A stretch of 64,000 nucleotides of DNA from Marsupella aquatica (Eukaryota > Plantae > Marchantiophyta), in assembly GCA_973895155.1 (NCBI GenBank), contig OZ316893.1:2562430-2626429 (forward strand), read 5' to 3'. Shown here in pieces: positions 25,734 to 61,099 of this stretch. The translations under genes were made by a program, and so were the position numbers. Position 1 is the first letter of the stretch. Every line of letters starts with the position of its first letter. The notes beneath the pieces are model-generated. The model had not been told where the DNA came from. It worked only from the letters and a program-made list of their open reading frames with translations, and did no database searches.

Positions 25734-26934
25734 TGCAATTATGTGATTCCTGCGGAGAGACTCATCGCAACACACAACGAAGTATTAATCACGTACAAGT
25801 ATACATTTACAAATCTCCTTACAAAATAAATTCAACTGGAAAGCAAAAAACGGTTAAAAACAACAGGAAAGCAACAAGAACCTTACAAGATGAACGGAGA
25901 AAGCTCGACTTAAAATCCCAAAGAGACGAAGATGGCGGTCCTCAACTGGACTAGAATTGAGTTGTAAGCGAGCACAAAACTAGAACCGAATGATGGAGTG
26001 AGCTTACGAATGTCGTAAGAGCTGTAGGCAAGAGAAGTGAAGTGGCCTGGACAACAGGATAATCTTCTCAATTAGACAGAATCAACAGCAAGGATCTGCG
26101 CGGAGCCTGATGAAGGAGAACTGGTCACAAGCTCCTTACATACTTTGCTGATTTACTGATTCCTTACCAAACTATTTGAGACGACACCAGCATCAGCAAC
26201 CTTCGTCTGGGGACCACTTGGGGAGTGACTGCCTAGTGACCATTTCAAATTCTGAGTTTTGAAGTGTGAAATATTAATAAGCTATTTACCAAAACAATTT
26301 GAGACGACACCAGCATCAGCAACCTTCGTCTGGGGACGCTGTTTTTACCTTCTCAGAAGCAGTCTATACTACATAGACAACAAATTAACGTGAAGCTTTA
26401 ATTATGTGACAACATGACTACTGTCCGGCCTCTGCAAAAACCTTTAACCCGGGATTTAATCTAGAGCTAAGCAAATTAGCTAGGAAGATTGCAGGTTGAT
26501 CTCGATCTACGGTGATGAGCAGGAGCTACGGGTCTGTCTAGCTACGATCAGTCCCACTTCCTTTCATAGGCCAGTCGCGATTAATTTCTCTTCTGCTAGT
26601 CCAGCTGTCTATGATCGATCGATCAGGAGCACTTCCCTTCATTAGTCAGTTACTATGATTGTGCTTTATTAGTGACTTCGAACTTTACCTGCAGATAGAG
26701 CAATACCCATCGATCTGTATGCAGTCAGTCCAACTCATATATTTGTTATCAGAAACTCGTGTTTAGTCATTTGAACTCTGAAATCTGCCAAATAAAGAGC
26801 TGCTAACTCGATCTGCGTCTGCAATCAGGAACCCTTGGTGCATTGGTGGTAGGATCCAAGTAGGAGCTCTGGTCTTGTCTGTCGTCAGTAAACCTGTACT
26901 GTTGTCACTTGATACAATGTTTTTTGTATTTCAG

Positions 26935-27259
26935 GACCTCGTGCTCACCGGCCTGTTCTCTTTTATTTTGTCGCATCCAGCGATTTTTGAAGATTCAATC
27001 GAATGCACGAGTGGGTATCCCGGCTGCTGTTTATTTCGCGGCTGTACTGGAGTATTTAACAGCCGAGGTTTTGGAAGCTGCTGGAAATGCTTGCAGAGCG
27101 CTTAAAAAGAAGCGCATAACCCCTCGGCATTTGCTACTTGCTTTAAAGGGAGATGAGGACTTGGATAATCTGATCAAGGCCACTATTGCCCAAGGGGGAG
27201 TTGCACCCTATATTCAGAAGTCACTCCTCAAAACCCGAAGCGGAAGAAAGACTGTTTGA
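26935..27259 (+). CDS. Divergent histone H2A, H2A.Z-like terminal exon; possibly a pseudogene; upstream exon not identified
   Basis: [24 protein letters not shown]...[32 protein letters not shown] is the H2A.Z-type core. A splice acceptor TTTCAG ends at 26934. Confidence 0.75.
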
Positions 27260-29473: not shown

Positions 29474-29919
29474 AATATTCGAACCCACTGATTGACCTTG
29501 CTAGCTAACATTCAGATTTTAAACACATCCATGCTCACAAGCTAGCCTGGTGGGCACCCTGGGCCCTCACTAAGCGAAATGTAATGAGACATACCTGTGA
29601 CCGAAGGCCCCCAAGTACCCCTTGTTATATTTTGGAAGAACATTAAAATGTATCTTGTTCGTTCTAAAAAGAATTTTCAGTCCTATATAAAATTTACCTA
29701 TGTTATTATAATCAGATAGATTTGAGTATTTAAAACACCCTTCATTTGTTATAAAAAAAACTTTTGGGAACAGATTCAATCATGAATGCACATTTTATTT
29801 AATGTACCATTAAGTGGCAAGTACACTAAACAAAGACATTGCCATATAATATTTGGCAATGTGTGAAAGCCATTGGGGCTTTAGCACACAAACATCTAAT
29901 CACTAGTACATTATGAGGC

Positions 29920-30440
29920 CAATTTCCGATATGGACACCTTCGGATCCCTTTGTAAAATTTTTCCAAGAAAAACATCTCATCCGACTCTAAACGTATCGC
30001 AAATTCCGACTCTCAACCCATCGGATAACGACAATCGGAAGATAATCGGACTTTGCGATACAAAACTTAACGCACTTTGCGTACCCAAAAATAACGGAAA
30101 ATCAGCCGTCCGATGTTCTGCAAATCGGAAATGGAAGAGGGGAGCCGATACACTTCCGATCCACTTTCGATACGTAAAGAATCGGACTGTGGGTAACTTT
30201 GAATATCGCATATTGCGTATCAAAAGGTTACGCAAAGACCGTAAATAAAAGTATCGAACATACCGTTGTTATAAAGATCGAAAATACCGTTACTAGAAGT
30301 ATCGGAAAGACCGTAACCAAGGGTATCGGAAAGATCGATTCTCTGGGGATGGCAAATTCCGAGTTTGGGAGAATCGGACATTCAGATATTTTTAAGATCG
30401 GAGGAGTATCGGATAATTGAAGGGGTAAAATTTCCGATTA
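29920..30440. repeat. Left subterminal repeat region of the CACTA element (ATCGGA/TCCGAT/ATCGCA)
   Basis: Dense TCCGAT/ATCGGA-like hexamers in both orientations. Confidence 0.85.
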
Positions 30441-30671
30441 TTAATTTTGGGGGTGTGGGGGTTACAATGTTGGGATGCATGGAAGTGAGCATGGGTAGCA
30501 AGAATGGTAGTGAGACTCAAAAGGGGGAAACCCCTGCCATTATATATACAAAAGAGGATGGCCTCCTCTAGCATGGAAAGTACAACCTTTACATGTACAG
30601 GTGTATAATCCATCTCAACCTGCATGGTATCGTGGCCTACCTACAAATGGTCCTATGCTAAGCTACCTGGC

Positions 30672-33603
30672 CTATCCATATGTTGGTGCATGTCGTCCCT
30701 TCCTCTTCTTGGCACGAGGGCGATAACTCTCTGGTCGGGTAGTGGCATCTGGCACTAACCCTAGGAACCTATCAATGACAGCATGAGATGCAGTTGCAGC
30801 TGTGGTGCTTGGAGCTATCGCGGTACCAACGTCACCAACATCACCTTCTAAGTCATGAGAAGGCACTGTAACACCCCCAGCATCGGAGCAAGTATGAAAT
30901 GATGCACTTCCACTACCCCCTTGGGCTGCAGAGTGGTGAGACCCTGCACCTCCACTAGCCCCTGACTGGTGAGATGGAGTCCCATCACCAATGCCACCAA
31001 CTGCAGTCCCACTCACCCTGTTGGCCCTTGAATGACCACGAGCAGTGCTCCCACCCCCAGTAGCCCCTCCACCACTAGCCCCTGAATGGCGAGAACCATT
31101 CCCGCCAACAACCCCTGAATGGCGGCGAGAACCACCATGGGGCCCACTACCAACCCCCCCACCAGACCCAGGCCTGTGAGAACCACTATGGGCCCCAGTT
31201 CTACCCCGCCCACCAGCACCTACAGATCGATCAAAACCGCCCCGGCGCCCACTACCACTTGTCCCAACACCACCTCCAGCAGCTGTAGCACCCCCACTAC
31301 CTCCTGCTGCTCTACGGCCACCTACATCACCATCAGTCCTCCGTCTAGAATGACTACCTCGAGTCCCTCGGGATGTGCCGCCAATCAAGCGAACAGGGGT
31401 GGGTGCCACACTCCCCTCCTCAGCCTCAGACTCTGAATCTGAGGCCCCCGAACCCTCCTCGGCTGAGTCCAAACCCTCCGACTCCTCATTTGACTCCTAC
31501 ATACATGTAAGCAACCATGAACCCAAGTGTTAGTGTTGAAAATGACCTACAAGGGAGTGATTATAACCATGTTGCATCAAAGGTTAGAAATATGGTTTTC
31601 AATTGTGCATATACTTACCGACCCCAACTCGTCCTGCATGTGAAGTTTCAGAGCCCGCGTTCCAAATTTCTTAGCCAACTCTCTCTCAGGTGGCAAGATT
31701 GGGCGTCCATGCTCTCGCTCCTGCACCATACTCAAGATAATAATTAACCCCCCTCCCCGGCAAATGAGAATAAAATTGAAACCCCCCATTACTTGAAATA
31801 CATTATTTTAAAAGTTAATCCCTACCAAATCCCCCACATTACTTAATGAATAATAATCCCTACCTAGCCCCACACATTACTTAGAAAAATTCCCTAACAC
31901 CCCCACATCCCTTTCAACTCATGGGTATCACTACCCACTCTACCTATATAAAATACTCCCTTATTATCGTGGCCTAACTATCGCAAAAAGCAACGACAAC
32001 CTAAGCCCGACACTCCTTAAAAAAAACAAACCCCCCGGCGTGGCCTAAAACAGTCAAATATTCAAAATTTTGAATTTTTCCAATGCTTCCCTAATCGGAC
32101 CCCTCCACCCTAAACCCCAAAACCTAAGGTCCGATGCAGGGTCCGATTCTCAGGTAATCGGACCATAATCGGAAGCCTTGCGTCCAAAACCCATAAGAGA
32201 GAGTCCCACTCCATTTCCGACTCTTCAGCAATCGGAATAGAATCGGAAACAGAAAAAAATAAGGACACATCAAAACTTGCGATACAGGCTCGATAACAAA
32301 CGCACAGGGATAAGAGGGGAGGTCTGGGAGGACTTATGCAGGCATAGCCAAGGTTGTGCCTGAGGTGATCAGGGAGAGGGAGGACCCAATTTCAAGGTGA
32401 AAATTCAGCAAGGAGGCGAGCAAGGAGGAGGGGAGCAGAGGACTTACAAACTCTGCTTTGAGACGATGCGCTCCACCCTGCCCCATTCGGTGAGTAACTG
32501 CAGGTCTCTTCTCCACCCTCTCAATTGCATTTTGAATGTAAAGTGGAGGGTCTCCAAGCAGTGCTAATTTGGCCTCCCATTCCATTAAGTTTTGCTGCAG
32601 GAGGGGGATGTCAACAGTCTGTCCTGAAAGGACCCTCTTCTCTGCCTCATCGAGCTCAGCCTGCCAGTGACGTCTCGCTTGCCAAGCACGAACCTGTAGC
32701 TCAGCATCAATCCAAGCAGACCAGGCATCAGCTGGTATCTCATCCGGGGGATCTCTCTGCCTGATCACCTCTACCTCCTCCTTACAATCTGCCAGGTACT
32801 TCCTCATCTTTTCTCTCACATTATTACGTCTATCTGCAAGTGAACGTGAGATCTTCTTATTCAGCCATCGATCATCCAGGAAGCAGCCATTACAGAATCG
32901 CTCCTTCACTTGCTCCCTTGCTTGAAATTTCTCCTCTTCTTTCTTCTTCCCCCAGTAATCTAAGGGGCTGAAATTTGCCCTCAACACCTGCCCTAGCTGA
33001 CTTCTGAACAAATTGTAGCTCTTTGTCATCGGAGCTCCTCCCTTATTAATGAACAATTTTGGCCGTTTGGCCCTTAGTTTCCTCTGCTCGTAGCCTCTCT
33101 TCCTCAATCCTTGCCCTCTCTGCAGCTCGAGCCTCCTTTCTAAGCCTCTTCTCTCTTTCTTGTGGTGAGAGGGCCTCCACTGGCCTGCCTTTCCTCTCCT
33201 CCTTCCTCTTTCTTTTTTTCTCCTTTCCTTTCTCTAGCCTCTCCATGAAAGCCTTCTCTGCTTCACTTATGGCAGATTTCCTGGATTCGTCAATCAGGCC
33301 CTGGGTCAATTGAGCTGCTATGGCCGCAGCTTCAGCAGACAGGCCTGCTTGCCTCTTGAAAATCTCTGCCATAATGTCCGAGATCTGTTGTGACGGCCCT
33401 GCTCCATCTCCACCCACCCTGGCTGCTCCGTCTCCTCCCCCCCCAGCCGTGCCATTCCCCTCCATAGCCTCGACCTCCAATGCGTGCTCCTCCACTTTGT
33501 GTTCACTCAGCAGCTCCTCCCAAGTTGCATCCGAAACCAAGCCCGATACAAAGATATTCGTACTTTAGTCGGGAAAAGTACCAAACCCTATTGTGCCCTC
33601 CAT
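30672..33603 (-). pseudogene. CACTA second gene, TnpA/Transposase_24-like; 3 exons; disrupted
   Basis: Exons ~33603-32449, ~31721-31619 and 31497-30672 with GT-AG ends. Contains a basic NLS-like run, W..W and HRMGQGG (H..G..G as in the Ptta/En-Spm family), EREHGRP and a Gly/Ser-rich tail. Early in-frame TAA near 33565 and a frameshift near 33046-33107. Family assignment is motif-level only. Confidence 0.6.
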
Positions 33604-34515
33604 CCGACTTTTTAAGAATCGGAACATCCGATACTTGAACTATCGAAAACGGGATCGAAAATAGCGATGCTTAAAGTATCGGACCCCTCTTCCAATATGA
33701 TCAGACTTAGCTTGTCCATTATTTTTTATGCCTTTAAGGATGGATTTATAATAAGTTAGTCAATGGGGGGGGGGTTGGGGATGTGGTAAGGAAATGTAAG
33801 TTTAGTTGATGTGAAAACTTGCATTGTAATTGTAGGCCTGGTTGAGTAGCCGGATTTTGTTTGGGCGGTGGGGTTCTTGAATAAAAGCCGGTTATAGGTG
33901 CGGTAACGTCCCCCTTACAACAACATACTTTTGGGGTTGAACGGTATGATCATTGACCCACTCACATTAAAAGTTTTGACAAATTTGTCCACCTTGTATG
34001 TGGATTTAATTTTGGGGGCCAAACAAAGTTAACCTCATGTGCGTGTATTGTGCAGTATTTTTTTGCGGAGGGTTGGGTCGTTCTCTTTGTTTGTATTTTT
34101 GTAGGTCCATTTTTGCAATGCATTATGCATCGCGATAGGCCGTGCATCCGAAAGGTATGATATACTCCCTTTATCATTTGGAGGTGAGCACAGTATATAT
34201 TTGGCTAAAGTTTTTTCATTGATGGCCACAATATATAGTGGATATGATTCTATGGGGACATATGTATAGATAAATTCTGATGGTATTCCTTTAATTGTGC
34301 AGGCATTTCGGATATTGTCTTAGCATATATTCTAAGGCCAAGATCCTAGTAGGCATTGTTCAGTGCGGATATCATTTAGGTAAGATGCACAGTCATTATT
34401 TTTAATTATTCGCTTAGTGTAAACTAGGTTCCAATCTTGACATATTGTATTTAGGGTACTTAATATGAGTGGGAAAGATTTTTGACATGTGATTAATTTT
34501 CACATTGATGGGCAG

Positions 34516-34757
34516 ATGTCAAATTCTGGGAGTTCCGAGTCAGATTCTGACTCGGACTCGTCATCTTCTGAGGGGGACATTCCTCCCCCCCCCCCCCCCC
34601 TCGGAGGCCGCATCATCCTCCTCCTCCTCTAGGCCCCATTCCATGTTGGTGTGTGCGATGTAAGGGAATGGTGGTTCGTCAAGCTTGGGAGTGTATTGAG
34701 CATATTGAGAATTATGGGCAACACCAACCTGATTTACCAGGACATTCAGCTCACCAG
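34516..34757 (+). CDS. 5' exon of the CACTA transposase gene encoding a transposase-associated Zn-finger (IPCWCVRC..HIENYG)
   Basis: ATG at 34516 directly after a CAG; Ser/Asp-rich start; a 16-C run at 34585-34600 shifts the frame; CxCxxC...H motif; phase-0 donor CAG|GTATGC at 34758. Confidence 0.65.
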
Positions 34758-34875
34758 GTATGCACCCCATACTCTCATCCCACACATTTCAATGAAGGAA
34801 ACATAATTTGCCACTTACAATCATGGCCACTATCATCATATATTTATTAATTTTGGATTTTTTTTGAATGAATAG

Positions 34876-35835
34876 GTGCCCCGTAGGCCCCCTCCTCCAT
34901 TGATCTCTAAAGAGCTATGGCTAGACACATTCTTGGCTAGTGCAAGACGGATGCTTGCATCAACATCTACACCCCCTCCTCCTGCCCCGTGCCCCAATGG
35001 TGAGGGCGGGAGTGTACCTGTAGCAAGGGTGGAGGACATTGAGCAAGGTGACCTGGAGGTACCTCCATCTAGGGTTTTACGCACCGGCCCACGCTCCCAT
35101 AGGCATAGGAGACATTATGAACCATTGGGCACTCGTGAGTCTCAAGACCCAAACTTGGTAGGTCCGCCTATGATGAAGCCAGGTGAGGGTTATGTGGTAG
35201 TGGAGGGTAGGTTGGGATTGTCATATCTCACTGGAAAGGCGTTGCCTCTTGTGAAGGACTTCTTGTCTGAGATATTCAAAATCCCTCAAGGCATACCCAC
35301 TAATGCCCCTATAGAGATATGGGGCCGTCATTGGATAGTGCAGTCATCTTCCCTTGGTGCTGATGTAGGATTTGGGTTATTTGCTTTGGAGGACATTGTG
35401 GTCCATCCAAAGCCATGGCGAAGAGGTTATGATGGGGAACACTTATTTCCTTATATTGGCCCTATATACACTGCCAAGAATTGGAACATTATTTTACGGC
35501 AACAACCATCATGGGGAGTGTATGCATTGCAAATGGAATCCGATCCGGATGAGGTCCTCAAGAGGCCTTGGCATTGTAGGATGATTGATGGTGATCCTGT
35601 GCGATGTGATAACATCGTTGGGTATATCAATAGTACCAAAGGGAGAGGACGAGGACTTCAACCAAATGTAGAGTGGGTTCAGATTCTTGGGGCACTGCCA
35701 CCACCTTACTATGTGAAGCATATGGATGACCATGTTATGACTGTAGCCATTAGGACTATTAGGGCTGGTGAGGAACTCTTTTGTGACTATGATTGGAACG
35801 CGCCTAAGATGGCCATACGGTGTCGTCCTTCATAG
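34876..35835 (+). CDS. SET-domain (lysine methyltransferase-like) exon inside the CACTA element
   Basis: Uninterrupted 319-codon frame with SSSLG.D.GFGLFALEDI (GxG), YIG, YALQ, IDG, GYINS...PN and AIRTIRAGEELFCDY (GEEL..DY). Phase-0 acceptor AATAG|GTG at 34875/34876. Confidence 0.8.
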   Translation: MPRRPPPPLISKELWLDTFLASARRMLASTSTPPPPAPCPNGEGGSVPVARVEDIEQGDLEVPPSRVLRTGPRSHRHRRHYEPLGTRESQDPNLVGPPMMKPGEGYVVVEGRLGLSYLTGKALPLVKDFLSEIFKIPQGIPTNAPIEIWGRHWIVQSSSLGADVGFGLFALEDIVVHPKPWRRGYDGEHLFPYIGPIYTAKNWNIILRQQPSWGVYALQMESDPDEVLKRPWHCRMIDGDPVRCDNIVGYINSTKGRGRGLQPNVEWVQILGALPPPYYVKHMDDHVMTVAIRTIRAGEELFCDYDWNAPKMAIRCRPS

Positions 35836-36022
35836 CACATACAAACATGTGTATATGTTCACTTTTATAAAAATATTACTTGAGTCATTCTCTAATTGGT
35901 TTCAAGAGCTATGGAGTCTTTTGACTCATTCATATATGGATGTCTCAATTGTTGGTTGAGAGACCTGGACTTATATCATTCTCATTGTTTTCTTTTGTGT
36001 ATGATAGAATGCATTTGTTCAG

Positions 36023-39000
36023 CCAGATATTGAGGTATTATCACGAGCTGTGCGACAACATCTCCTTCAGGCCATGGATGGTAGGCAAGGGGGTCAACCT
36101 TTTGAGGATATGGACATTCCACATGAACTACCTAATGCTACCCAAGAAAGAGTGGATGAGGACCGGGCTATGGATGAGTTGATGCACCAATTCATGGATG
36201 CAGATGAGGGTGATCCCCGGGGTGATCATGACCCAGGTGACTGGGAGGACATTGACTTACCTCCTCCTCATAGGCATACTCCTTCACGGAATCGACACTT
36301 GCACCAGTGGGAGGAGGCTCAAGAGCATGCACAGACTCGTCTTTTTGAGGGGTCTAGATTATCTCGTCTTTCAGCAATCATGTTATTACTGAACTTGCAG
36401 CAAAGACATGGAGCAAGCAACTTGCTTCTTGATGATATTTTCAGGACATTGCATGATCGTATGTTACCAGAGGGGAATAACTTGCCAGCATCATGGAAAG
36501 AGGCAAAGAAAGTGTTGAAGTCCGTAGGCCTCAAGTATGAGGTCATACATGCTTGTGTGAATGATTGTGTTTTGTTCAGGAAGGAGCACTCAAATGCTCT
36601 TACATGCATGTCCTGTGTGCAACGCGCCAAGATATCGTGAGGATATGTTGACAGGAAGAGTACCTCAAAAGGTTATGAGGTACTTTCCCCTTATTCCTCG
36701 TTTGTGTCACCAGTTTCGATGTGCAGAGTTGGCTAAGTATATGGTATGGCATTCCCAACACCGTTCAGACACTACTCAGGATCCAACCATGCGCATGATG
36801 GTTGACTCTCCTGCAAACAGATTTGTGGAAGAGCGTTGGGGTGAGTTCAAGACTGACCCTCGTCATGTTCGCCTTGGTTTGGCATCAGACGGCATTAGCC
36901 CATTTGCACTGGCCGGCAAGGCCAAACCATACTCTGTATGGCCAGTAGTCCTCACTAACTACAACATCCCACCATGGATGGCCATGAAGAAGGGTCATTT
37001 GCTCCTATCTATGATTATTCCTGGCCCTAAGCAAGTGAAGAAGATTGATGTATACTTGCAACCGTTGATTGAGGAGCTACAGAAACTTTGGGGGGGAGTG
37101 GATTGCTATGATGGTCGAGTGCATACAGGGGGCTTACCCCGTGAGTTTCAGCTCAAAGCCATTCTTATGTGGACCATGCATGATCTTCCAGGTACCCAAC
37201 TCTTTATAAATTAAGTATGGCTTGTGCAGCTACCCATATATATATATATCGTTCTGTTTATTTTTTTTCCCTTTGGTTTGGTTTCAAAACTTAATGGGTT
37301 TTAATTTGTGACCATTGTTTGTGAAGGGTTTGGATATATTTCTGGCTTGCAAACTTTTGGATATCGTGCTTGCCCAACTTGTGGACCAGACTTGGAGGGA
37401 GTGGCACACCCAAAGTCTACCACCCTGCGGAAGATAGTTTACATTGGTCACACAAAGTATCTTCCTGAGGGGCATGACTGGAGGTATGATCCATTTTTGT
37501 ATGACACGGATGAGGGCCAGCCAGACACAAGACCTCAACCTTTACCGAAGGACCCAATATATTGGAAGGAGGTATGGGAGAGGGTGACTGATCCAGATGA
37601 CCCATTACCCTTGGCTAGATGTGGCATGACCCGTTTGTCTGCATTGGCACAACTTCCATATTGGGAACACATGCCGATAAATCATCTATTGGACCCTATG
37701 CATATTGAGGGGAATGTTGGGAGGTCATTGATCCGCCATCTATATGGAGAGAAAAACAACAATTGGAGGGAGAGTTGTGAGGAGATGGGGATGCATGGCC
37801 TTCATGGTTTTTGGCCATCTATGGACCCTGACCCTCCCCTTACTATCCATCCCCCATGGGTTTTCACAAGGAGTGAGCGAATAGAGTTTCGCAAGCGGAT
37901 AGGGTCAATGCGGTTTCCTACAGGGTATGGTGCCAATCTTCGCAAGGCATTTGGTGGAGATGACTCTCCAAAATGGCCAGCTTTCTTGAAGACCCACGAT
38001 TATCATCGTCTATTGCAGCACGTTATTCCAGTTGCTATTATTGGATTGGGCAGCGAGGATCTTCGGGATGCACTTTGGTCATTGGGTAGATTGTTGAGAT
38101 GGGTTTGTCAAAAGGAGGTCAACGAGGGAGAGATTGCTGCCATGGAGGTATTTGGAGTGGAGGTTGTGTGCAAGTTGGAGCGAGCACTCCCTCCTTCCTT
38201 CTTTGATGGTCAAGTTCATTTTCTTGTACATCTAGTGCGTGAAGTAGCCATTGCAGGCCCAGTACATTGTCGTTGGATGTATTGGGTAGAGCAATTCATG
38301 GGAGTCATGAAATCATATGTATCAAACCGTGCTAGGGTGGAAGGTAGCATTGCCGAACGTCACCTTGGAGCAGAGAGTATGTTCTATTGTACGAACATTG
38401 TGGCTACACTTGATCCAAATGCTCCAAGGGGTTGGATAGATGAGTCAGCACGAGAGGCAGATTATGAAGAGGATAGACTCACTGGAGCAAAGGGAGAACG
38501 ACTACTAGGCTCTGCTGAACGTCTGCAACTCACCACATTCATGTTGTATAACTCACCAGAGATTGCAGGGGAGTGGATTGCATTTTAGGAGGAGGAGAAG
38601 AGTAATAGTCGTCGGCCACGCCTCTTCCCCAAGTTTCTCCCATATATGAAGGAGAAGTTGACAGAGATTGATGCCTTGTTGGGTCAGGGTGAGAGTGTTT
38701 TGCACTTTCCGAAGGTCACCAATGACATTCGCACCCTTGTTCATGGTCCATTACTCATGGTCACCACTCGAACAGCCATGTGGTCAAAGGGGAGGCATTT
38801 TTGAATCCAACATCTTGATATGAAGAGAGCAGCAACACAAGATTGTGGGGTGATGGGGTGGTTCACCCAAGAGTCACAAAGTAGCACTTCTGACCGGAAT
38901 CCAATACGTTCAACTGTGGCCCACTATGGGAAGATAGAGGAGATTCTTATCGTAAATTATCATGCCCATACAACCTTGGAGGAGGTGGTGTTCAAGTGCA

Positions 39001-39281
39001 AATAGTTTCGGATGAATCTTGTTGGCCATAATCGGACCTGTGAAGAAGATGCATGTGGGTTCACACGATTGAAGACCAGTGCAACTAGTGTCATTAGTTC
39101 CAATTGGAGGACCTCAGATCCATTTGCATTTTCCCATCATTTGGAGCAATCTTTCTATCTTCCTTATCCGAATGACCCAGAGTGGTCCATTGTTATGCCT
39201 TACATCCCTCGCTCACGATCCATTGTTCAAGACAAGCCAAGTGTAGTTGTAGTAGAGGATTTGGACCCCTCATTACAATAG
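36023..39281 (+). pseudogene. CACTA TnpD-type transposase (Transposase_21, DUF4218, DUF4216-like), inactivated
   Basis: IHACVNDC.LF, CPVC..PRY, RYFPLIPRL, LGLASDG..PF, YSVWPV, YNIPPW, IPGP, DVYLQPLIEEL..LW, HDLPG, ACPTC, DPMHIE.NV, LKTHD.H, FFD...H..VHL, GPV..RWMY..E..M, VEGSI. Intron 37192-37326. Lesions: CATG duplication frameshift near 36605 and stops at 38586, 38802 and 39003. Confidence 0.93.
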
Positions 39282-39469
39282 ATGCGACCTAGGTAAAACC
39301 CCTATATGTTTTATCTTCATGGATATCATATACATTTTGTCATGTCATTTCACACATGCCCAAAGATTCATTGGTTGGATATGATTTTGGATACAACTGT
39401 ATATAGTCCCTTGACACAATCCAAATTGCAATCCCTAAGTAATATATGCATTTGAGTCACGTCCATTTA

Positions 39470-39945
39470 TTCCCGATACCATTTCCCATGCTTAAAACAA
39501 TGGAAGCCCATCCTTGTTCAAATCTTGACCTCGAACTACATATATCCGATATAAACCCTTTCGGACTCCATTTCCGATTCTTGTAGCATCGGACTTATTT
39601 GTGATACACACTACTTCGGAAAACATTTCCGATACCCAACCTATCGGAAGCACTAAGCAATACATTTTCGATCGCAATATTTCCGTAATTTACTCAATCG
39701 GACATCAAATGCGATACTTCAGGGATCAGAAATTTAGTAACAATTTTTAGAAGAGGGGTCCGATAGTCAAGACATCGGATATGTTCCGATATTAGGAGTA
39801 TCGCAAATTATGTCCGATGTTTTAGAAATCGGATACTGTGTTTCCGAAGCTGTGGGGATCGCAAGTTCCGATATTTTTGTGAACGAAAGTTTGCGTAACT
39901 CTGGCTATTGGACGCCTGTCTCATGTTTCAGCAGGAGCATCGGAA
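39470..39945. repeat. Right subterminal repeat region of the CACTA element
   Basis: Dense TCCGAT/ATCGGA/ATCGCA motifs. Confidence 0.85.
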
Positions 39946-41699
39946 AATGAGCAAAAATGTACTAGTGAATTTAAACTACATACGGGACTACATATATCAA
40001 AGTTCTCCAGAAGATTCCAACGAAATCTCACTACAAGACATGCATTAGAGGTGACATTGCACTTAACAAGCCAAATAAGTCATCCACTACTCCTCTCTGT
40101 AAAATGCCAGACATCTTACTGGGCCATAGATTCTTAATGTTGCTCCATACATATGGGATGGGAGCATCCACTTCTGAAAACTGAGAGCAAATATTACAAA
40201 TACTGGAATCACCACACTCAACACAAACCCATTGGGCTTCACTATTGTCCTTCTTGAAATTAGAACCCCCTAATCCACTGGTGTGATGACACGTGGTCCA
40301 ATGAATAAGTGACGGGTGTCATTAGGTCTTACCATGGCCCTTCAGTTCATTAACTTTGGGACACATTTTAAAAAAACCCTTCACCTCTTCTAATCGGTTG
40401 CAAATGTAAACAAGGACCTTGTTGCTTAGAACGGTGTTATATTATTATTCACGGATTTGATATTTAATACCCATCGGACGTTTGCACGTATGTTTCGTTA
40501 TTTTGTAAGCTGAGGGCCCAGGGGGTGGGCAGGTGTACCTAACAATTAATGTTCAACAGTTGTGTACTAGAAAAATGGCATGTGGGGATGTGGGTTACTC
40601 TAGACTTTGTGAAGGAATAGAGAGTGAGAAAGAGACTCTTTGTAAAGGAATAGGCATTCATTTGAGTTTCCCAAAACCTAAACCGTTTACTGAGTGACTA
40701 AAAAAATTCATCAAAACTCTACCAGGCAATTTAATTATGATCTATTTTCTTCTCAATATGGGAATATAACCCTTATTTAGATAAAAGTGGAATTTTCAAT
40801 TCCAGAAATGCTTAAATGAAGTTTTACAAAGATATTACTGATTTATTTAATTCATTTAAATAAATAAATTTAAACCACCACGGGCCATATATAAGGGGGA
40901 AGTGTCCTGGAAGACTTCCATTTTCCCCCATTGTATTAACTCTTTTCCTCTAGTTTGAAAGTATGGTATGCTCCAGGACATCAACAAAAACCTGATGGAT
41001 CCAAGTTCAGTCACATGTGATAGGAACAATTTAAACAAAGTAAACCAAATTGAGTGTTTAACTTGAATCTACTCCTTTCATAAATGTTAGACTCTTTGCA
41101 TGGCCTCTGCAAAGCCTCGGGTCTTGGTAGAAAACATACTAGATTACTTAGAGTAAAAGAATTAGTTAGTCAGGAACATCTTAGGTGGGTCACACGCTTG
41201 GACACTTTTCTTTTGGATTGTGTCTTTCCTTGCTTGCATGGACCACATCTTTTTGTGTCCTTGCTCATTGGGGCTCTCTCTCCGTCTCATAGGTTTGCAT
41301 TTTGCTGCCTCTGTCTTTGTTGCCCTGTTGGGCCCCCCTTCCCATGGGTTTTTGCGGGTTTTATTCCCCCCCCCCCCTCCCCAAACAAAAAAAGAAGTAA
41401 ACCAAATTAAGTGTCAAAACATACAATAAACCATGGTTCGTATTCTAATTTGTTGGTGAAATGCATATTCAATGCAATACACTGATAGTGAGTAAACAAA
41501 AAGTTTTCATTTAAATTGGTATCTACTGAATTTGAGAATTAATATTGGCTATAATACTCAATAAGTCCCAAGGGCCTAAAAGAAACTTAAGCCAAATTTT
41601 TTGCATTTAACACTAGTAGATCTCTACAAAATGACAAGTTTTATACTATGTGTATCTATTTTCGCATCAGACACTATGAATATAAAGACTGAATTTACA

Positions 41700-44600
41700 A
41701 GTATTATCGGGTGCTGCCAAAACTGAGTTCAAGAATAGAATTTTTGCTCTACAAGTAGACATTTTGGCATTCGACATTATGAAGTAAAATGAACATTACA
41801 AGTAATCATTCATGAATATATAATGCAGTAATCAATCATTTCAATTTTTCACGTAAATAATGTAACTTTTATTATCCAAAAAGAATACATTTGAATATAT
41901 TCTAAACACTACACCACACAAGCTGTGGTTTCTTTTACTACATTTCTATTGATAGTGTCTCATACTTCAGACCAAGTAGGATAGTGATATTTAATAAACT
42001 TATGCGCTGTCTGACCAGAATCTTCTAGATTACGTAAATATGGAATAAGTGTGCCTCTAAGAAAATTGTCTTTACAATTACCATAATACGGCTTGGGATA
42101 CAGCCTTGAATACATTGGATTTACACTATCAAATGATGGATAACACTCTAAAAATATAACATTTTGTCTTTGATATTGTGGATAAATATCATTGATCTGT
42201 TTCATGTCCATCAAAGTTGATGTAAGATACTTAAGACCAGAAAAACTCAAAGCTTTATCTGTGAGTATTGGATCCATTTGATCAGCCAGTTCGCATGTGT
42301 CAGTGAGTGCCCAAAGAACCACATCAAAAGTTGAAGTGCAAAATTCAAGAAATTCTTGTACATATGGTCTCGGAAAGATCATTTTGTTATAAACTCGGAA
42401 AGATGATGTCTTCTTCAAATGACGAGAGACCCCAGTTGTGTAAATGAGGAACTTGTTGATACTTATGACAAGTAATTTCCTGAATAATTTTTCAACTCTC
42501 ACCTGTACACAACACACACAGATGAGATTTAGAATAGTACCCAAAAATGTGTCATAAATTAACTATGCACCATGGTTCATTCTACAAATAAGTGTGATAA
42601 GTAGTCCAAAATGTACCCTGATTATTAAACACATGGAATCTCCTTGAATGATTTCTATCTCCATGATCACGAATATACTGAGTATTGATCCATATTTGGA
42701 AGTGTTCCCTCCAATCTTGTTGCAATGACTTTTGCAACCATAATGGGTAAGTTTCCTTGATACTATACACTATTCACATCCATAATGACCAATTTGCTGG
42801 TTTGGGCTCAGATTGCACCTAAACAATCAAACAATTTATAGCACTATGAAAAACATTATACATTTTAAGTATAGTCAAAATAAAATCATTACTTCTTGTT
42901 GCGCAAAATCTGCTGAGGTGTCTTCTTCACCTTTGGCAGCATAGTAACTTTTTCTATCACCGAGGGTCTCTTTGAATCCCGTCGAGTGGCACGACCTGGA
43001 ATGACCTTGGAACCAGTCTTAGGAAGCTCCATTCTTGTTGCCGGAGTCGTTTGTGAACAATCTCCATGAGAAGTTGAAACTAATGGGATCCCCAAAAAAG
43101 GAGGTGGTAATTCATTCAATCCATCAGCGTAGGCTGCAGCAGATGCTTCCTCTTCCCAAGGCGCAATTTTTCCCACCTCCGGTATGTCTTGATCTTCAAG
43201 GTTAGTGGCTTGTTGGATCCAAGGATGTTCTTCACTATCTACCAACAAATCACTCTCATTTGTTTTAGGGTCCATCGATGTGTGAGACACCTTTGGTTTT
43301 TCGGCCAAAATCATAACAGGATCCACTTGTGCATTGATTTCAACATTTCTTGTCTCTAGAGGATCCATTTGCTCCCTTGCTAGGTTGCTGTCAACATTTC
43401 TTGGCTTTGTCAATGTGAAAGGCTCATCCAAAATATTAGCCTCAACCACTAGAGGATCCATCTGCTCCCTTGCTAGGTTATTGTTAGCATTTATTGGCTC
43501 TGTTGATGTGGGACGCACATCCAAAATGTTAGTCTCAACCACTAGAGGATCCATCTGCTCCCTTGCTAGGTTGTTGTTAGCATTTCTTGACTCTGTCGAT
43601 GTGGGAGGCACGTCCAAAATGTTAGTTTCAACCATTGAAGGATCCATTTTCTTCTCCACTGGATCACCATCAACATTTACTTGCTCTGTCGATATGGGAG
43701 ACGTGCCCAAAATGTTAGTTTCAACCAGTAAAGGATCCATCTGCTCCACCATTGGATTCACGACCAAAGCATTGTCTCTTATTGTTTCCTCATTTGGAAT
43801 GAAAGAATCATCTCTCTTCACACCCAAATCTTGGATGATTGCTTGTTCATAATCACTTTGATAAACTGCACATGTATCTAGTGTAGCATCATTAAGATTA
43901 GACACGGGTGTATCTATAGAGTTAGTGATAGGGTTGGAGATTAGTTGATACTCCTTCATCCAAGTCCATTTGTTAATAGTGCTTTTAGGTTCACTTTGAA
44001 TGGCAAAAACATCAATAGGAGGATCTCCAACCATTTCACATACTTTTGTTGCATAATAGACATTATCTTGTAAATTAGTGATTTGTTCAGGGGTTTCCAA
44101 ACCGGAGCGATGAGTCAAAGCTTCATGCCAATATGCTCTTGCTTTCCACCCATGAAATTGAGCTTCGCTTCGAAAGAACTCATCCCAATCTATTGTAGAA
44201 ATGTGATCTGGGCAACTGGTTTCCTAATCAGGAATATAATTTTCCCACACAAATTTGCGGACAATCATTCTTCGCTCATTTTTACTTTTGGTTTCATCAA
44301 ATGCCACTTCATTTTTGTTTCTTTGATTTGATTCTTGCACCCCAGCACGACTACAATTTGATTGGATATTTTTAACATTCTTTGCATTTAGATTTGAGGT
44401 AGGGCATCTTCCTTTGGTCATTGAAACTCCTTGTTCCTCGACATTGAGCTCTGGTTCGGTTTGGAAAGCCCTGAACGAGTCAAGAATTTCCATTGAATCA
44501 TTTGGTGATTCCACGTGATCCAACTTTAGTGGCTGCCAAGCATTCGGGGAATCAATGTTATCCTCTTCGTCCTCATCCTTGTTCTCGTCCTCAATAGAAT

Positions 44601-47600
44601 TGGTTTTATCTCCTACAACCAAAACAACAAACAATAGATAAATATGGTGAACCAATAAACTTCTAATTATTTTTATTTATTAAATATCGCTATTAGTTTG
44701 CTTTGCCTAATTTCAATGACTACATGATGTATTAGACAAGTGTTTTCTATATTATGTTAGGTACTAATCTAATTTTTCACAAAATTCCAGAGTAAGTTAA
44801 TCTATTTATAGAATTTAAGCGATTCATTTGACAAGTTAAAACTATGATTGGGTTGTTCAGTTCGTATTAGTATTTGCTTCAACTCTAGTTGGAATTATTA
44901 TCCATTTGAAATGTTTGGACTATACCAAATAATAGGTTCTATATTGTCTTGATAAATTTATCTAACTTCACACATCCAACTTGTTCCAACCATGGTTCAT
45001 TCTAATATTTTCATCAATCAATCATTCTATATCAAATCATGTACATCATTCTCTTGAGAACATCGATTTATAATTCATGATTCATATCTGGCATATGACA
45101 AGTTTGGCTACTTAATTCATCATTAGCTATTGAATATGGTAGTTTATAACAAATGGTAGTCATATTAACCTCCAAGTGGATCAGTAGGAACATTGGTTGG
45201 CATTTCGTAGACTTTGTCATCTGATTCAGGAATGTTGCCCAATCCATATTCCTTGATCACACGAGCAATACTACTTTCACCAAGGTGTAAGGTATCTTTG
45301 CAAAGCTCAATAATGTCCTCTCTCATATTCTTCTTGGCCAAATTATACTTCATCAATCTGGCAATATTTTTCTCTAAAATACTTCAAAGTTCACATGATG
45401 CTTCTTCAGGCTGATCATGATTAAACTTGTTTGTGGAAGAAAAGAACTGCGTAAGTCCTTCGTGATTAGACTCGTCACAATATGAACGTACCCAAGCTCC
45501 CAAGTTCTGCAAAACCATGAGACTGAGTTTTAATACTTGGGATTTCAATATAGTTGAATAATTAAATGAACTTTCAACTGTAAGGTTTGGGGTTTAAAAA
45601 CTCATACCAAAAGGGAGTGGATCAGATGTCGGCCATCTCCAAAACAGACAGAAAACTTGTCAAATGAGACAAGTTGAGAAGTCAAGTTATCATAGAAACT
45701 CTTGCTTTTCTCCCCAAGCTGAGTCTGCTCTGCAACATCTTCTGTTGTCTCTTCATAATTCTTCAAACATCCTGCTTTCTTAAAGCTTAACAAAATTTTT
45801 CCAGAAATCTCATCTGCCTCACATTCTTCAGTGAATGACACTTTGAAGAATGCATAAGTTACAAAAAGACAATTGACATCATAAATTGTCGATGTAGAAG
45901 ATGACGGTCGAGATTGTGTCCAGTATTGTGTTGTGAATGCAACATAATGTGTGTGTGCTGAAATGGCACTCATCACAAAGAAAGAGTCGATCGCAGATGA
46001 TATCACTACCACGACATGAGATGGTTTGGACCCAATCATAGAAGCTGCATCAAAGAATGCTTCATATGTCTTCCGTGTCATGGGACTTATTCCAGGTATC
46101 ATGGTAGCATCCAAGAATATGAATGTTGCCATTTCTTTCAATTCCAAGATGATTGGACGAAAAAATGCAGGAGTTCCAAATCCCTCATTTGAACAAAACC
46201 TAAGTTTTGAGTCAAGTTTCACAACCACCGGATTACCTTTTCCATCCACTGAAGCCCTGATTGACCATATCAAACTCTTAAAAACTCCAGGCAAAAGATT
46301 TTGCAACTCGTCATTTCCAGTGTTCTTCGTTAATGATTTTGGGATTACTGCAGGTCCAAGCGTAGTTCGAAGTTTTTCAACTTTATCTGGAGTAAGCTTA
46401 AAAAAAGCTCGCATTGCATTCACCTTCTCGATTCTCTGCTCCATGGGCAACGCTCGTAGTTTCCCCTTAGGCATATTATCTTTTGCAAGATATTTCAAAA
46501 GCAGTATCTCAAACTCCTTATCCTGCTTCTTTTGAACGCAATACTCATCAAGAGCAATGAAATCTTCTTCGATAGGAACTGCATCTATCTTCTTTGCAAT
46601 TCCGCTACTTCGTTGCTTCATTAGTGAGATCTTCTTATTGGTAAGAAGATACCTTGCAATCTTCATCAACACTGCATCTTCAACACCAAGAAAATCCCGA
46701 AATGTTCTTCGTGCCACCTCCCAAGCTCCTCGAGCAGAATCTTTCTTAATAACATCTCTCTGTAAGAACCCATTGAAAGCAACCAATTTTCCTTCTCTTG
46801 ACATCTCGTAAACTTTCATCCACAAGTTGAAGGTGGAATCTGTCATATTTAAGATGAAAGGTCCAAGTTCACCCAAATTAAATTTTCCATTCTCCTCTTT
46901 AGCCCAAGGGATGACGATCATTGCTGCTTTTGAGAAGTGCTGTTCACACACAACTAAAATCATTAGGTGGATACGAACCATGGTTCACACTGTTATACTT
47001 TTCACATTCTATTGCATTCAGATGCACTAGCAGAAGTTAAACAAGAATAAAAATAAACTTATGAAATATATGACTCTTACCTTCCATTTTGAATCTTTGG
47101 TGCTGTTTGTCTCTGAAGGAGGACATCCATAACTTTTCCAAATATCTCTGACCTATCTTGCAATCAAGAAAAATTGGGATTCATCCATCGCTGTGTGATG
47201 GACATGATTCAATGTCTTTGATAATCCCATCATTACCAGGTTCCCAGCCAAATCATATGGTGCCCAAAACATCACGGCATCAATTGTAAGGCATTTTTGA
47301 TGAATAGCAGCATCCACTGATTCATCATTCAAAAGTAATCGGTAAGCTATTACTGTGTGCTGGCCTCCAATTATCCAAAAATGATAATTGTCAATTTGAT
47401 CAAGGATCGGTGGGTGTGACAATGGAGTCCCACAATAGCCAACTTCAGTGCTCCTGCTCTCATCCCAAAGCACTGGGATGAGGAAACAAACCCGCTTCTC
47501 AAAATTTACCAACGACTGAAATTTCATCGAGTTGGCAAGGTCCCTTGAGTAATCAGGGTCATGTCCTCTACATTTTACAACATTGGGTGCAATGTGGCAT

Positions 47601-48358
47601 TTCAAATTTTCAACATTGAAAACTCTACTATCAAAGATGTTTGCTTTTTTATAAACACCATTGAAACTCTTGCAAAGATCTCCAATGTTTTCTCTAGTGA
47701 TCACTTTTGGAAGTTCTCCTGTTTCAAACTTGGATTGCTTCTCAAGTTCCTCCTTCTTTCCAACACGAAATGTTTCCGGGAAGGTGCATTTTGCCCATGC
47801 CAAGATGGATAACATGTACCTCTCGATGCTTGGGCCATTTATGAGTGTAGAAACCTTTGGGAATGTGGGATCCAAAATGGTTGAGAATGCCTCCGGAGAT
47901 AATCTACAATTTGCCTCAATGTATGTTTGGTCAAACATCCCAAATACCTCTCTGGAGAAACAATAGCAAATCCTATTGTTTTGTGATTCATCGACGGTAT
48001 CCTCCTCGACCAGAAGGACCAAAGCCTCTTGACAGTCTTTCAGGTTGACATTTTTCTCATAAACACAACTGAGAATTCGAGAGTCTGACAATACCAAAGT
48101 CCCCTCTTCAGAAGCGACGCACATCCGAAGAACATTCTTATCAAGCACCACTCCCCAGTGCTTCATATCTTTCTGTTCAACTCGGACAACAGTATCGGTG
48201 ATGGTGGATTTCAATGTCATCTTCCTCCCACGAAAATTAGTGATGGAATTCACTCCTGTGACACCCTTTCTAACTTTGGCTTTCCTTTTTTTTGGGCTTC
48301 CATCAGTTTTTTCCAAAGACTTCCGCTTCTTCTTGCTAGTTTCTCCTTCGGATGCCAT
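41700..48358 (-). pseudogene. Large multi-exon gene (~1,800 aa if repaired): ParB-like domain, degenerate DNA-methyltransferase-like fold, 33-aa repeats and FCP1-like HAD domain; probably TE-associated
   Basis: Approximate exons 48358-47081, 46940-45606, 45506-45170, 44612-42892, ~42819-42615 (frame uncertain), 42502-41966, with GT-AG ends. Single in-frame stops at 47153, ~45385 and 44224 with the frame open beyond each. Motifs FWIIGGQHT; FIFLDA; EKS..FY..L.....D....FGDG...L.NLG; KLLVISIN...RPYVQEFLEFC..TFDVVLW. Confidence 0.65.
43335..43750 (-). repeat. Coding tandem repeat, 99-bp / 33-aa unit (..EQMDPLVVETNILD..PTSTE..N.N.NLAR), about 4.5 copies
   Basis: Visible in the 42889-44118 ORF and as recurring GGATCCAT ... 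CCAAAATGTTAG at 99-bp spacing. Confidence 0.9.
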
Positions 48359-48549
48359 GACTATGTGCGTTCTCGCTCTGCTTCACAACAAAAACAAATT
48401 TGATCATAAGAATACTGTCGGCAAGATGTAACAAGGATATTCTTTAAAGAACATGTTGAATGTTCAAAGAAACCAGATATTTTGAAATGTTTGACTTAAT
48501 TTTCTCCCAGGGACAGCATAGAGTAGTTTGGATTCTGGCAAAATGTAGA

Positions 48550-60800: not shown

Positions 60801-61099
60801 ACGCTCCATTGATGACCATTTGAATCCAACACACCGAGTGAAATCAGATTCTTACGCATGCCAGGTACATACCTGACTCCGGACACTGTGCGCACAGCGC
60901 CATCAAACATTTGAATCTTCACAGACCCAATTCCCTCAATTTGACAAGAGTGATCATTTCCCATCAGAACTGAACCGTTTGAAATAGAGTAAGAACTTAA
61001 AAACTCACGAATGTAACAAATATGAAAAGAGCAAGCACAATCAAGAATCCACACATCATCTGCTCTCCTAGATGACGTGCACAGGGCATACCCCCGGCT
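57827..61099 (-). CDS. pol: Copia pol (protease, integrase, reverse transcriptase, RNase H)
   Basis: WILDCACSFH (protease); LWHSRLGH..C..C; HSDVWGP, LRSDNGGEY, QNGVAER (integrase); YKARLVAKG, LYGLKQSPRQW, YVDD (RT); YVDSD, TEAEY, CDSQSA, ADAFTK (RNase H). The frame is uninterrupted. Confidence 0.95.
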   Translation of the reverse strand, partial: SRGYALCTSSRRADDVWILDCACSFHICYIREFLSSYSISNGSVLMGNDHSCQIEGIGSVKIQMFDGAVRTVSGVRYVPGMRKNLISLGVLDSNGHQWSVIDGELQVRSGEIVILKGSRQKNLYVLQDNTVCGEANVTKSHEEMTQLWHSRLGHMSEKGLAILQKNGLISNFQSCKLEFCEHCIFGKQHRRAFGVGTHRSKAVLEYIHSDVWGPSPTPSQSGKLYYVSFIDDYSRFVWIYFMTHKSDVLSIFKKWKAQVKNQTGNTIKCLDTRVKSLRSDNGGEYTSMEFEEYCSEQGITRHLTTVYTPQQNGVAERLNRTLLERSRSMLSQSGLPQEFWAEAVNTATYLVNLSPSSAINFKTPFEMRYKRQADYHGLVIFGSDAYALTPKQNRTKLDPTSRKCVFLGYQSGVKAYRLWDPIACKLVVSRDVSFNESRLLKEGENTQVSRTDKGKSPIPDLVEGEIGYEVHDQREGVAPIMELVPVPEEPEEFVDAGEQQVDVVELQIVPAHADQPESSARRTSGRTVRAPSRYGQWVDSSQLQEDDFTADDEGDALILEEGEPSSFHEASASKEKQKWTAAMQTEMQSLKDNKTWELVQLPKGQQVVDSKWIYKLKDNSIGGGSKVYKARLVAKGFTQEKGVDYNEVFSPVAKYSTIRLLCVLVVMFGLLLDQMDVVTAFLYGTLEEVIFMRQPLGFVKRGQEELVCRLLKSLYGLKQSPRQWNKRFDDWIRSQGFHRSVFDPCVYLKPVKNVVFGFIVLVLYVDDMLIAAKDRSEIVKLKALLSAEFKMKDLGPAKRILGMEITRDLEVGKLWLTQSSYARKVIARFNMENSKPVSTPLAPHFKLSSAFCPTDDTEKGLMSKVPYDKAVGSLMYLMTCTRPDLAMAMGKVSRYMSNPGKVHWEAVKWIIRYLKGTVDHGLLFDANAKNARSLIGYVDSDYGQDLDRRRSTTGYVFTLGGGCISWRSTLQKCIAQSTTEAEYVAAAEAAKEAIWLDRLITEMGLPQGNVKLHCDSQSALHLAVNQVMDSRVKHIDVRYHFIRQAVSDNLFELVKIDGKLNPADAFTKVIPLESFSRHRDVLQVLQLHHK

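Follow-up and report, generated by a model that had tools for sequence, protein, structure and literature searches.

One CACTA gene can yield two proteins by alternative splicing, as described for maize En/Spm and for Arabidopsis EN/SPM3 and 7 (PMC13547354). SET genes are also found on transposons: red-algal Plavaka, of the EnSpm/CACTA superfamily, has long retained an accessory gene, PAG2, with a SET domain (PF00856) (10.1101/2025.02.11.637652), and the HarbingerS and MuDR elements of Phytophthora, as well as Helitrons, carry SET genes for which counter-silencing has been proposed (PMC12730594, Bostrychia preprint). In the accessible parts of this literature, transposon-borne SET genes are listed for oomycetes and red algae, with no test reported. 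The last two sources also name the VANDAL VANC proteins, which are encoded by the transposon and have an anti-silencing action on the chromatin of their own element. SET-carrying transposons are thus already known (HarbingerS, MuDR, Helitron, Plavaka); our literature search returned no description of a SET exon nested in a CACTA transposase gene, the layout that we report here.

We analyzed a stretch of 64,000 nucleotides of the liverwort Marsupella aquatica (contig OZ316893.1), hereafter the window. A first-pass annotation had called a CACTA transposon, and the element is indeed delimited at 29901-39967 (10,067 bp) by CACTA ends at 29901 and 39967 and by an AAT duplication; the locus under study is its right half (Table 1). 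Besides these ends and the 3-bp duplication, it has the subterminal direct and inverted repeats and the TnpD domains of CACTA/EnSpm elements (Pfam Transposase_21, E 4e-41, and DUF4218, 1e-28; DUF4216, at 0.0026 on a fragment, is under its cut-off). The counts of TCCGA/TCGGA words in the table are to be compared with 0.93 per kb outside the element, and the cluster between the two divergent genes likely marks a promoter region. The window's own copy is probably dead, and its TnpD is broken by a frameshift near 36603 and by stops at 38586, 38802, and 39003.

Table 1. Features of the CACTA element, in window positions.
Feature	Position	Strand	Basis or remark
Left target-site duplication AAT	29898..29900	.	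AAT on both sides
Left terminal inverted repeat, begins CACTA	29901..29914	+	13/14 bases equal to the right one
Left subterminal repeats, TCCGA-N11-TCGGA type	29915..30450	.	18 TCCGA/TCGGA words
Second gene, several exons	30672..33564	-	Head-to-head with TnpD; frameshift near 33050
Internal subterminal-motif cluster, 8 words	32050..32300	.	Within minus-strand gene
Subterminal-motif cluster, 5 words	33500..33750	.	Between two divergent genes
Predicted shared first coding exon	34516..34757	+	Ser/acidic stretch, Pro run, CxCxxC...H...G zinc-finger motif
Predicted phase-0 GT-AG intron, 118 nt	34758..34875	+	Same junction in gene model P0001
SET exon, 319 codons, uninterrupted	34876-35835	+	Pfam SET and predicted fold
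Arg-rich patch	about 35071-35130	+	In SET exon, before folded domain
Folded domain	35182-35811	+	Within SET exon
Pfam SET match	35371-35790	+	Within folded domain
TnpD exon with Transposase_21	36008..37191	+	Acceptor 36008 or 36023; frameshift near 36603
Predicted phase-1 intron in TnpD	37192..37326	+	Read from sequence
Last TnpD exon: Transposase_21 end, DUF4218, weak DUF4216	37327..39281	+	Pfam
Right subterminal repeats	39450..39953	.	16 TCCGA/TCGGA words in 39450-39967
Right terminal inverted repeat	39954..39967	-	13/14 bases equal to the left one
Right target-site duplication AAT	39968..39970	.	AAT on both sides

The SET-like frame that had been noticed between the zinc-finger and TnpD exons is open throughout, and encodes in order a conserved helix-like N-terminal stretch, a variable linker, the Arg-rich patch (found in 23/31 family members versus 0/18 control windows), and the folded domain. 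Both checks proposed for it gave a SET: PF00856 matched at 30.7 bits against a cut-off of 22.4, and AlphaFold predicted a SET fold with pLDDT 91.7 and pTM 0.87 from 69 sequences, compared to pLDDT 43 in an earlier prediction from 14. Foldseek against the PDB returned SET proteins in every listed row (best E 3e-7), and VIA-align superposed the model on Set1 with Z 11.9 (rmsd 2.6, 124 aligned), Set1, EZH2, SET7/9, SET8, and LegAS4 being within 1 Z unit of each other. Searching solved structures with the single sequence yielded just two matches by chance, and a family profile was needed instead. In the ESM Atlas, SETs of giant viruses and haptophytes form the nearest clusters (score 0.96).

Canonical SET domains are recognized by a GxG motif, a terminal ELxxxY tyrosine, and an NH(S/x) motif. 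As previously read, this SET is minimal and lacks Cys clusters on either side, and the GxG and the terminal Tyr are kept (GxG, YINS, and EELFCDY are present). The INS described in place of INHS is also there, but the HMM alignment puts Ser at the His position, the His being replaced rather than deleted. Across the family alignment, the second Gly of GxG (62/63), Tyr198 (66/66), Asn252 (62/69), and the terminal Tyr (56/60) are conserved, while the canonical NH His is replaced in 69/69 rows, by Ser in 66. Such a family-wide loss, together with large insertions relative to solved SETs (Foldseek TM-score about 0.46), would suit a catalytically dead domain serving as histone binder, scaffold, or decoy. 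We consider this quite improbable, as GxG, Asn, Glu, and the terminal Tyr persist in members down to about 25% identity, and LegAS4, the best match both by sequence profile and by Foldseek, is described as an active H3K14 enzyme (10.64898/2026.05.29.728679) despite lacking the same His; the loss therefore does not exclude membership in the wider SET family. The product of the SET exon is likely a catalytically active lysine methyltransferase.

We asked whether the SET exon could be a passively captured host fragment (Pack-CACTA transduplication) that stays open in the window by chance. The openness of this one copy says little, considering that five majority differences from same-family contigs are amino acid changes in its SET frame and that the SET stretch is broken in 14/20 family-B copies. 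On the contrary, the search for a near-identical host exon revealed no host-type SET donor among the family matches, about 89 representatives (50%-identity clusters) at E<=0.001 among 1.84 billion, nor any close host-type SET among the 54 members scanned for domains. These 54 gave SET in 33 and Transposase_21 in 2, and pre-SET, AWS, post-SET, or other chromatin domains in none. Pattern matches in viral contigs (0/17) and prokaryotic genomes (0/88) were not confirmed as SET relatives in a scan that detects close relatives only.

The exon also keeps its position, between zinc exon and TnpD, in the window, in L001, in family B, and in the Riccia models, in lineages 35-67% identical; Calypogeia gene models also follow the order zinc exon, SET, TnpD. 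Among 24 metagenome loci, the zinc exon is upstream in 10/10 with at least 600 nt upstream and TnpD is downstream in 12/13 with at least 600 nt downstream, counts that reflect about two loci lineages since 22 of the 24 are one family at 92-100% identity. L016 has no TnpD within 10 kb downstream, L005 and L014 are identical across the SET region, and L005 and L007 have a common CACTA end with different flanks. Identity to the window drops in parallel for SET and TnpD over five pairings (67/82, 60/84, 41/61, 39/59, and 38/49), three of them inferred rather than seen on one contig. In a midpoint-rooted tree of the family alone (57/69 rows, 12 dropped for less than 75% coverage), members linked to zinc exon or TnpD are distributed over several of the main clade's branches.

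The proposed test of dN/dS below 1 gave 0.29 (0.17-0.47) for SET in L001 versus the family consensus, 0.18 (0.10-0.31) for the SET core, and 0.26 (0.08-0.71) for the zinc exon. At its N-terminal end, the SET exon gave 0.68 (0.37-1.46), indistinguishable from neutral, and the changes common to L002 and L003 gave 0.97 on 9 changes only; the window versus family B comparison was left out, dS being saturated. Copies compared to their own consensus gave 0.81 for SET and 0.78 for TnpD. SET is under purifying selection between lineages, and dead copies decay like TnpD. With its own family, its fixed position, and dN/dS of 0.18-0.29 between lineages, the SET exon has been held for long and, in agreement with the first-pass annotation, is not a passive host fragment; passive capture is largely refuted and, in our view, very improbable.

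Both predicted products would begin with the zinc-finger exon. Its annotated phase-0 GT at 34758 stands in the Cys/His frame, but the ATG at 34516 lies in another frame, the window copy being shifted within the poly-C run near 34582-34598. The acceptors AG/34876 and TTCAG/36023 are both phase 0, as had been read; a second phase-0 TnpD acceptor, TAG/36008, has a better pyrimidine tract than 36023 and resembles the TAG/AAT acceptor of a related metagenome family. The additional GT that had been pointed out at 35059 is phase 0 but unremarkable, being 1 of 23 such sites in the SET frame, where every Val codon supplies one; in P0012, the closest relative, this position is not a Val. A zinc-SET-TnpD fusion, the type of which SETMAR is an example, is unsupported here, the last phase-0 GT of the SET frame (35743) preceding the terminal motif.

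PF13963 (Transpos_assoc) is the domain that usually starts TnpD, according to the available text of PMC8978399. It matched zinc exons weakly in 2/13 queries, from different lineages (E 0.011 and 0.031); these matches, both from relatives, do not reach the gathering cut-off, and none was obtained with the exon of the window itself. The zinc exon thus weakly resembles the usual N-terminal domain of TnpD, and therefore both downstream exons likely share it. A GT donor, an intron of 111-118 nt (111 nt in L001, 117 nt in L005), and an in-frame AG are present in three lineages. The Calypogeia fissa gene model P0001 carries the window's zinc-to-SET junction, in Riccia sorocarpa models the zinc finger is fused with SET (P0038, P0048) or SET sequence continues into TnpD (P0053, P0068, P0098), and Logan protein P0035, a single entry of 423 aa, has both a zinc finger and a SET; gene models are predictions, some seemingly artefactual, as P0053, P0067, P0095, and P0103 end SET before the last Tyr. 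Same-family contigs compared over 34631-39990 of the window are of DNA type and read straight across the first intron; of their 23 joints, the 15 listed include no predicted junction, as expected of DNA. Longer TnpD proteins were also sought, and the 3 matches do not start with a zinc finger. The position of the first Met in the TnpD exon is not conserved.

Alternatively, SET could be a separate gene with its own start, nested in the first intron of TnpD, the zinc exon being spliced to TnpD only. L001 and family B have in-frame ATGs close to where the SET frame begins, which would agree with this. However, the 25 codons upstream of the frame's first Met are 13-18/25 identical in five relatives, more conserved than the following 40, and therefore translation likely begins upstream. 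This coding-type conservation, the intron kept in three lineages, the junction of P0001, and the single entry P0035 make a nested gene improbable. The shared-first-exon model is supported by its fit to the sequence in several lineages, and splicing of the zinc exon both to SET and to TnpD seems likely.

The minus-strand gene is found at the same place in 6/7 related loci with at least 2 kb upstream (~27-46% identity) and is missing from metagenome locus L017. Its protein matched no family in Pfam and the ESM Atlas, including Transposase_24, and we take it to be TnpA-like by motif and position alone. The analogy drawn earlier with maize TnpA and TnpD does not fully hold, since here the TnpA-like partner has a gene of its own, head-to-head on the opposite strand.

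We propose that this CACTA lineage retains a SET exon that follows the predicted first exon of the transposase gene and precedes its predicted second one. Splicing of the zinc-finger exon onto SET would give a predicted lysine methyltransferase, while splicing past SET onto the TnpD exons would give the transposase. The SET protein may mark histones at the element's own copies, to which the shared zinc finger or the Arg-rich patch could bring it, and these copies would stay expressed. As a whole, we hold this reading tentatively, as quite possible but short of probable; histones as putative substrate and the anti-silencing effect are its least supported parts. It is possible, but doubtful, that this is an old bryophyte CACTA lineage of both major liverwort classes and likely mosses, in which the transposase gene acts as a two-way switch, one zinc exon heading either the transposase or a virus- or bacterium-like histone methyltransferase. 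The latter would be recruited to the repeats of its own element and would rewrite the chromatin there.

The same spliced, active enzyme could also restrain or tune the element, by methylating TnpD or the TnpA-like protein or by writing a repressive, reversible mark (e.g., H3K27 methylation), either at the element itself or at genes of the host. A small or aliphatic residue two positions before the last Tyr permits multiple methylation under the Phe/Tyr-switch rule, and the family has C (19), A (14), V (10), I (6), or T (5) there. Moreover, EZH2 is one of the tied best fold matches, SET7/9, SET8, and viral enzymes are likewise minimal SETs that lack pre- and post-SET parts, the nearest ESM Atlas clusters are of viral and haptophyte type, and two competing acceptors would by themselves limit transposase. 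DNA transposons of green plants are reported as preferred H3K27me3 targets (PMC11982613). Considering that other transposon-borne chromatin enzymes are interpreted as counter-silencing factors (in the accessible text of PMC12730594), we regard restraint as rather unlikely.

If the reading of an old bryophyte lineage with such a two-way switch is true, this would be the first demonstrated case in land plants of a transposon encoding a histone writer of its own, and it might contribute to the histone marks seen on bryophyte DNA transposons. A small single-domain SET with a confident predicted fold and under purifying selection makes transposon-written histone marks directly testable, and the shared first exon would couple enzyme and transposase levels via one splice choice. 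Through such elements, "SET domain genes" of transposon origin also enter the annotations of liverworts (Riccia, Calypogeia), which could inflate host SET counts.

Compared with the enzymes LegAS4/RomA, SET8, SET7/9, Set1, and giant-virus SETs, the window SET has the same predicted fold (Z 11-12), needs no pre-SET cluster, and, like LegAS4, is without the NH histidine. It differs by an identity of only 15-29%, an additional conserved N-terminal part of ~55 residues, longer internal loops, and absence of an ankyrin or MORN partner domain. The element is similar to En/Spm in its CACTA ends, 3-bp duplication, and subterminal repeats, whereas two-product splicing is only predicted here and the alternative product would be a SET protein instead of TnpA. 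The split-gene families described in the available text of PMC13547354 are head-to-tail, while the window's pair is head-to-head. From the accessible descriptions, the SETs of HarbingerS, MuDR, and Helitrons belong to other superfamilies and hosts and are accessory genes rather than an exon sharing the transposase first exon. VANC proteins, from Mutator elements, contain no SET enzyme and have experimental support; they are the model for the role proposed for the window SET. Plavaka PAG2 is similar in that an EnSpm-superfamily DNA transposon keeps a SET gene over long evolutionary time. As described, PAG2 is an accessory gene of its own in elements of 17-19 kb and also encodes an N6-adenine methylase domain, which is absent from the window SET frame and its 54 scanned relatives. 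Here, SET is the only domain of its frame and lies within the TnpD gene of a land-plant element of 10 kb.

The frame at 34876-35835 (319 codons), between the zinc-finger exon (zinc exon, 34516-34757) and the exons of the CACTA transposase TnpD, is a SET domain, as the first-pass annotation had proposed. It exceeds the Pfam cut-off for PF00856 (SET), AlphaFold2 with 69 aligned relatives gave a pLDDT of 91.7 and a pTM of 0.87 (pLDDT 43 with 14 sequences), and Foldseek against the PDB returned SET proteins only among the matches listed, with LegAS4 and SET8 on top. Viral structure matches of the model were mostly giant-virus SETs. Using VIA-align, Set1, EZH2, SET7/9, SET8 and LegAS4 tied (Z 11.0-11.9), and the substrate cannot be read from sequence or fold comparisons. 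The GxG and the terminal Tyr pointed out in the window are kept across the family alignment, together with PYxGxxY, NxAGYINS, one invariant Asn and GxEL..Y, and this Tyr lies at most 25 residues from the protein end in 53 of the 56 members possessing it. LegAS4 is also the top solved relative of the family profile (E 3e-4); its YINF stands opposite the YINS of the family, the His being replaced in both, and the accessible text of one study describes it as an active H3K14 enzyme (10.64898/2026.05.29.728679). That the SET protein is a catalytically dead binder is improbable. Moreover, 23 of 31 members carry an Arg-rich patch ahead of the domain (0/18 control windows); this patch may act as a nuclear signal or serve to anchor the protein on nucleosomes.

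The element around this frame (table) has termini matching at 13 of 14 bases, with a CACTA start and AAT on either side, and clusters of TCCGA-N11-TCGGA-type motifs at each end, of 18 and 16 words, versus 0.93 words/kb outside. Such clusters were also seen internally, with 8 words at 32050-32300, within the minus-strand gene, and 5 words at 33500-33750, between the divergent genes; these palindromic clusters are possible autoregulatory binding sites. TnpD, on the plus strand, matched Transposase_21, DUF4218 and, weakly, DUF4216. The nearest named relatives belong to the liverwort Calypogeia fissa, at 68% in SET and 61% in the TnpD exon, which makes a liverwort host probable. The minus-strand gene found no family match in Pfam or Atlas, and its position and a motif would make it TnpA-like. 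As TnpA-like domains are restricted to flowering plants according to the available part of PMC13547354, a bryophyte equivalent or replacement of TnpA at this gene is of interest.

Features of the CACTA element and its surroundings in the window
Feature	Position	Strand	Remarks
CACTA element	29901-39967		SET/TnpD form its right part; ends and flanking AAT
Second multi-exon gene	30672-33564	minus	head-to-head with TnpD; conserved
Histone H2A frame	26864-27259	+	some 2.6 kb to the left of the CACTA element
ARC6-type plastid division gene exon	22702-23793	+	E 5e-62
Run of long frames, no clear family	41960-48382	minus	444-, 460- and 409-codon frames among them; may be a further mobile element of unassigned class
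NIF-phosphatase-like frame	41960-42562	minus	
93-nt tandem repeat	43356-43727		
Copia retrotransposon	57827-62143	minus	long gag and pol frames, one stop codon between
277-codon frame	7566-8399	+	weak C2HC zinc-finger match

The annotation had also claimed that one locus could give a zinc-finger product with either SET or TnpD. The phase-0 donor after the zinc finger and the phase-0 acceptors for SET and TnpD are indeed present in the window and recur in family B, a group of metagenome loci; in the window, in family B and in the related locus L001, the donor GT is followed by an intron of 111-118 nt and an in-frame AG ahead of SET. The TnpD acceptor at 36023 is phase 0, but 36008 agrees with relatives no worse, and the further GT at 35059 loses its significance, as it is one of 23 such phase-0 sites and is not conserved in the related protein P0012. 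The 25 codons preceding the first Met of the SET frame are 13-18/25 identical in five relatives, above the next 40 codons, which fits translation from the upstream exon; a nested SET gene with an independent start is quite unlikely. The Calypogeia gene model P0001 has the zinc-to-SET junction as in the window. A single Logan protein entry, P0035, holds zinc finger and SET together; as other Logan entries begin at an exon edge, suggesting unspliced ORF calls, P0035 probably represents a single open frame of its contig. Among the 15 contig joints listed, of 23, none fell at a predicted splice junction, and the contigs run through the intron, as expected of DNA-type contigs. An ancestral intron of TnpD seems to house the SET exon, because the TnpD exon opens with conserved residues before any conserved Met and because, in two separate lineages, the zinc exon gives a weak match to PF13963 (Transpos_assoc; 2/13 queries), described in the accessible part of PMC8978399 as the domain starting CACTA transposases.

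Among 1.84 billion representatives searched, 89 were relatives, with named members in Calypogeia fissa and Riccia sorocarpa. Scanning 54 of them gave SET in 33, Transposase_21 in 2 and host-type chromatin domains in none. Of 24 metagenome loci, 22 constitute family B (92-100% identity), L001 is its sister (80-83%) and L022 is distant. Results showed the zinc exon upstream of SET in 10/10 loci having at least 600 nt upstream, TnpD downstream in 12/13 having at least 600 nt downstream, and the opposite-strand gene in 6/7 having at least 2 kb, counts that come mostly from the single family B. This family has its own CACTA end, its flanks differ between L005 and L007, and its SET is only about 41% identical to that of the window. 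In Riccia, models from three SET lineages combine zinc-finger, SET and TnpD sequence, again in this order, and identity to the window drops in parallel for SET and TnpD over five pairings (three of those inferred).

Family-B copies also bear later insertions, of about 210 nt (L015) and 4 nt (L024) at the SET exon start; L018 and L016 share one of about 900 nt, located at the intron of TnpD. A deep SET branch comprises P0078/P0131, P0091/P0134 (two distant Calypogeia proteins in two copies each) and L022:367-696; since neither zinc exon nor TnpD link was seen in these members, this branch may be carried by a different element or have been domesticated.

The annotation had argued against a passively captured host fragment, and a family of this size with a recurring exon position bears this out. 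Between L001 and family B, dN/dS was 0.29 (0.17-0.47) for the SET domain and 0.18 (0.10-0.31) for its core, with 0.26 for the zinc exon. Copies compared with their own consensus gave 0.81 for SET and 0.78 for TnpD, and the SET stretch is broken in 14/20 family-B copies. A low ratio between lineages together with decay of the copies is the pattern of a gene under selection during element mobility but not after. It favours a role for SET in the transposon and speaks against both host domestication and passive capture, the latter being very improbable.

The window copy itself is probably dead. A poly-C run shifts the frame between the ATG at 34516 and the zinc finger, and the reading frame of TnpD is interrupted by three stops and, near 36603, by a frameshift. 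Same-family contigs from four public runs span 34631-39990 (30/30 bins in each run); the 36603 shift is absent in 3/4 runs, and among the rows listed sense codons stand at two of the three stops (38588 and 39004) in 4/4 runs. Majority reads differ from the window SET frame by five amino acids and one silent change. A more diverged contig set from these runs also spans the SET exon, with at least 7 silent and at least 5 amino-acid differences among 40 rows listed (536 further). The window copy thus belongs, as an ageing member, to a family with open frames at these positions, and its open SET frame is by itself no evidence of selection.

Most likely, one promoter, adjoining a subterminal-motif cluster, would yield either zinc-SET or zinc-TnpD, zinc-SET being a putative SAM-dependent lysine methyltransferase working for the element. 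We tentatively favour that the enzyme marks histones, keeping the element active. The main rival, that it acts on transposon proteins or writes a repressive mark, is rather unlikely; in favour of a repressive mark, the available text of PMC11982613 describes a preference of H3K27me3 for DNA transposons in green plants.

In conclusion, the SET exon is a real, conserved feature of this CACTA element, with splicing and activity predicted. A literature search, with most subscription journals and Repbase outside its reach, found no SET exon described for any CACTA element of land plants, and the accessible portions of PMC8616336, PMC4158355 and 10.64898/2026.08.24.746577 hold nothing on SET cargo. 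SET genes in transposons are already known: the available parts of the sources report them in Phytophthora HarbingerS and MuDR transposons (PMC12730594) and as PAG2 in red-algal Plavaka of the EnSpm superfamily (10.1101/2025.02.11.637652), and SET-carrying Helitrons are known as well. For maize and Arabidopsis, the accessible text of PMC13547354 likewise describes CACTA genes that are spliced into two products.
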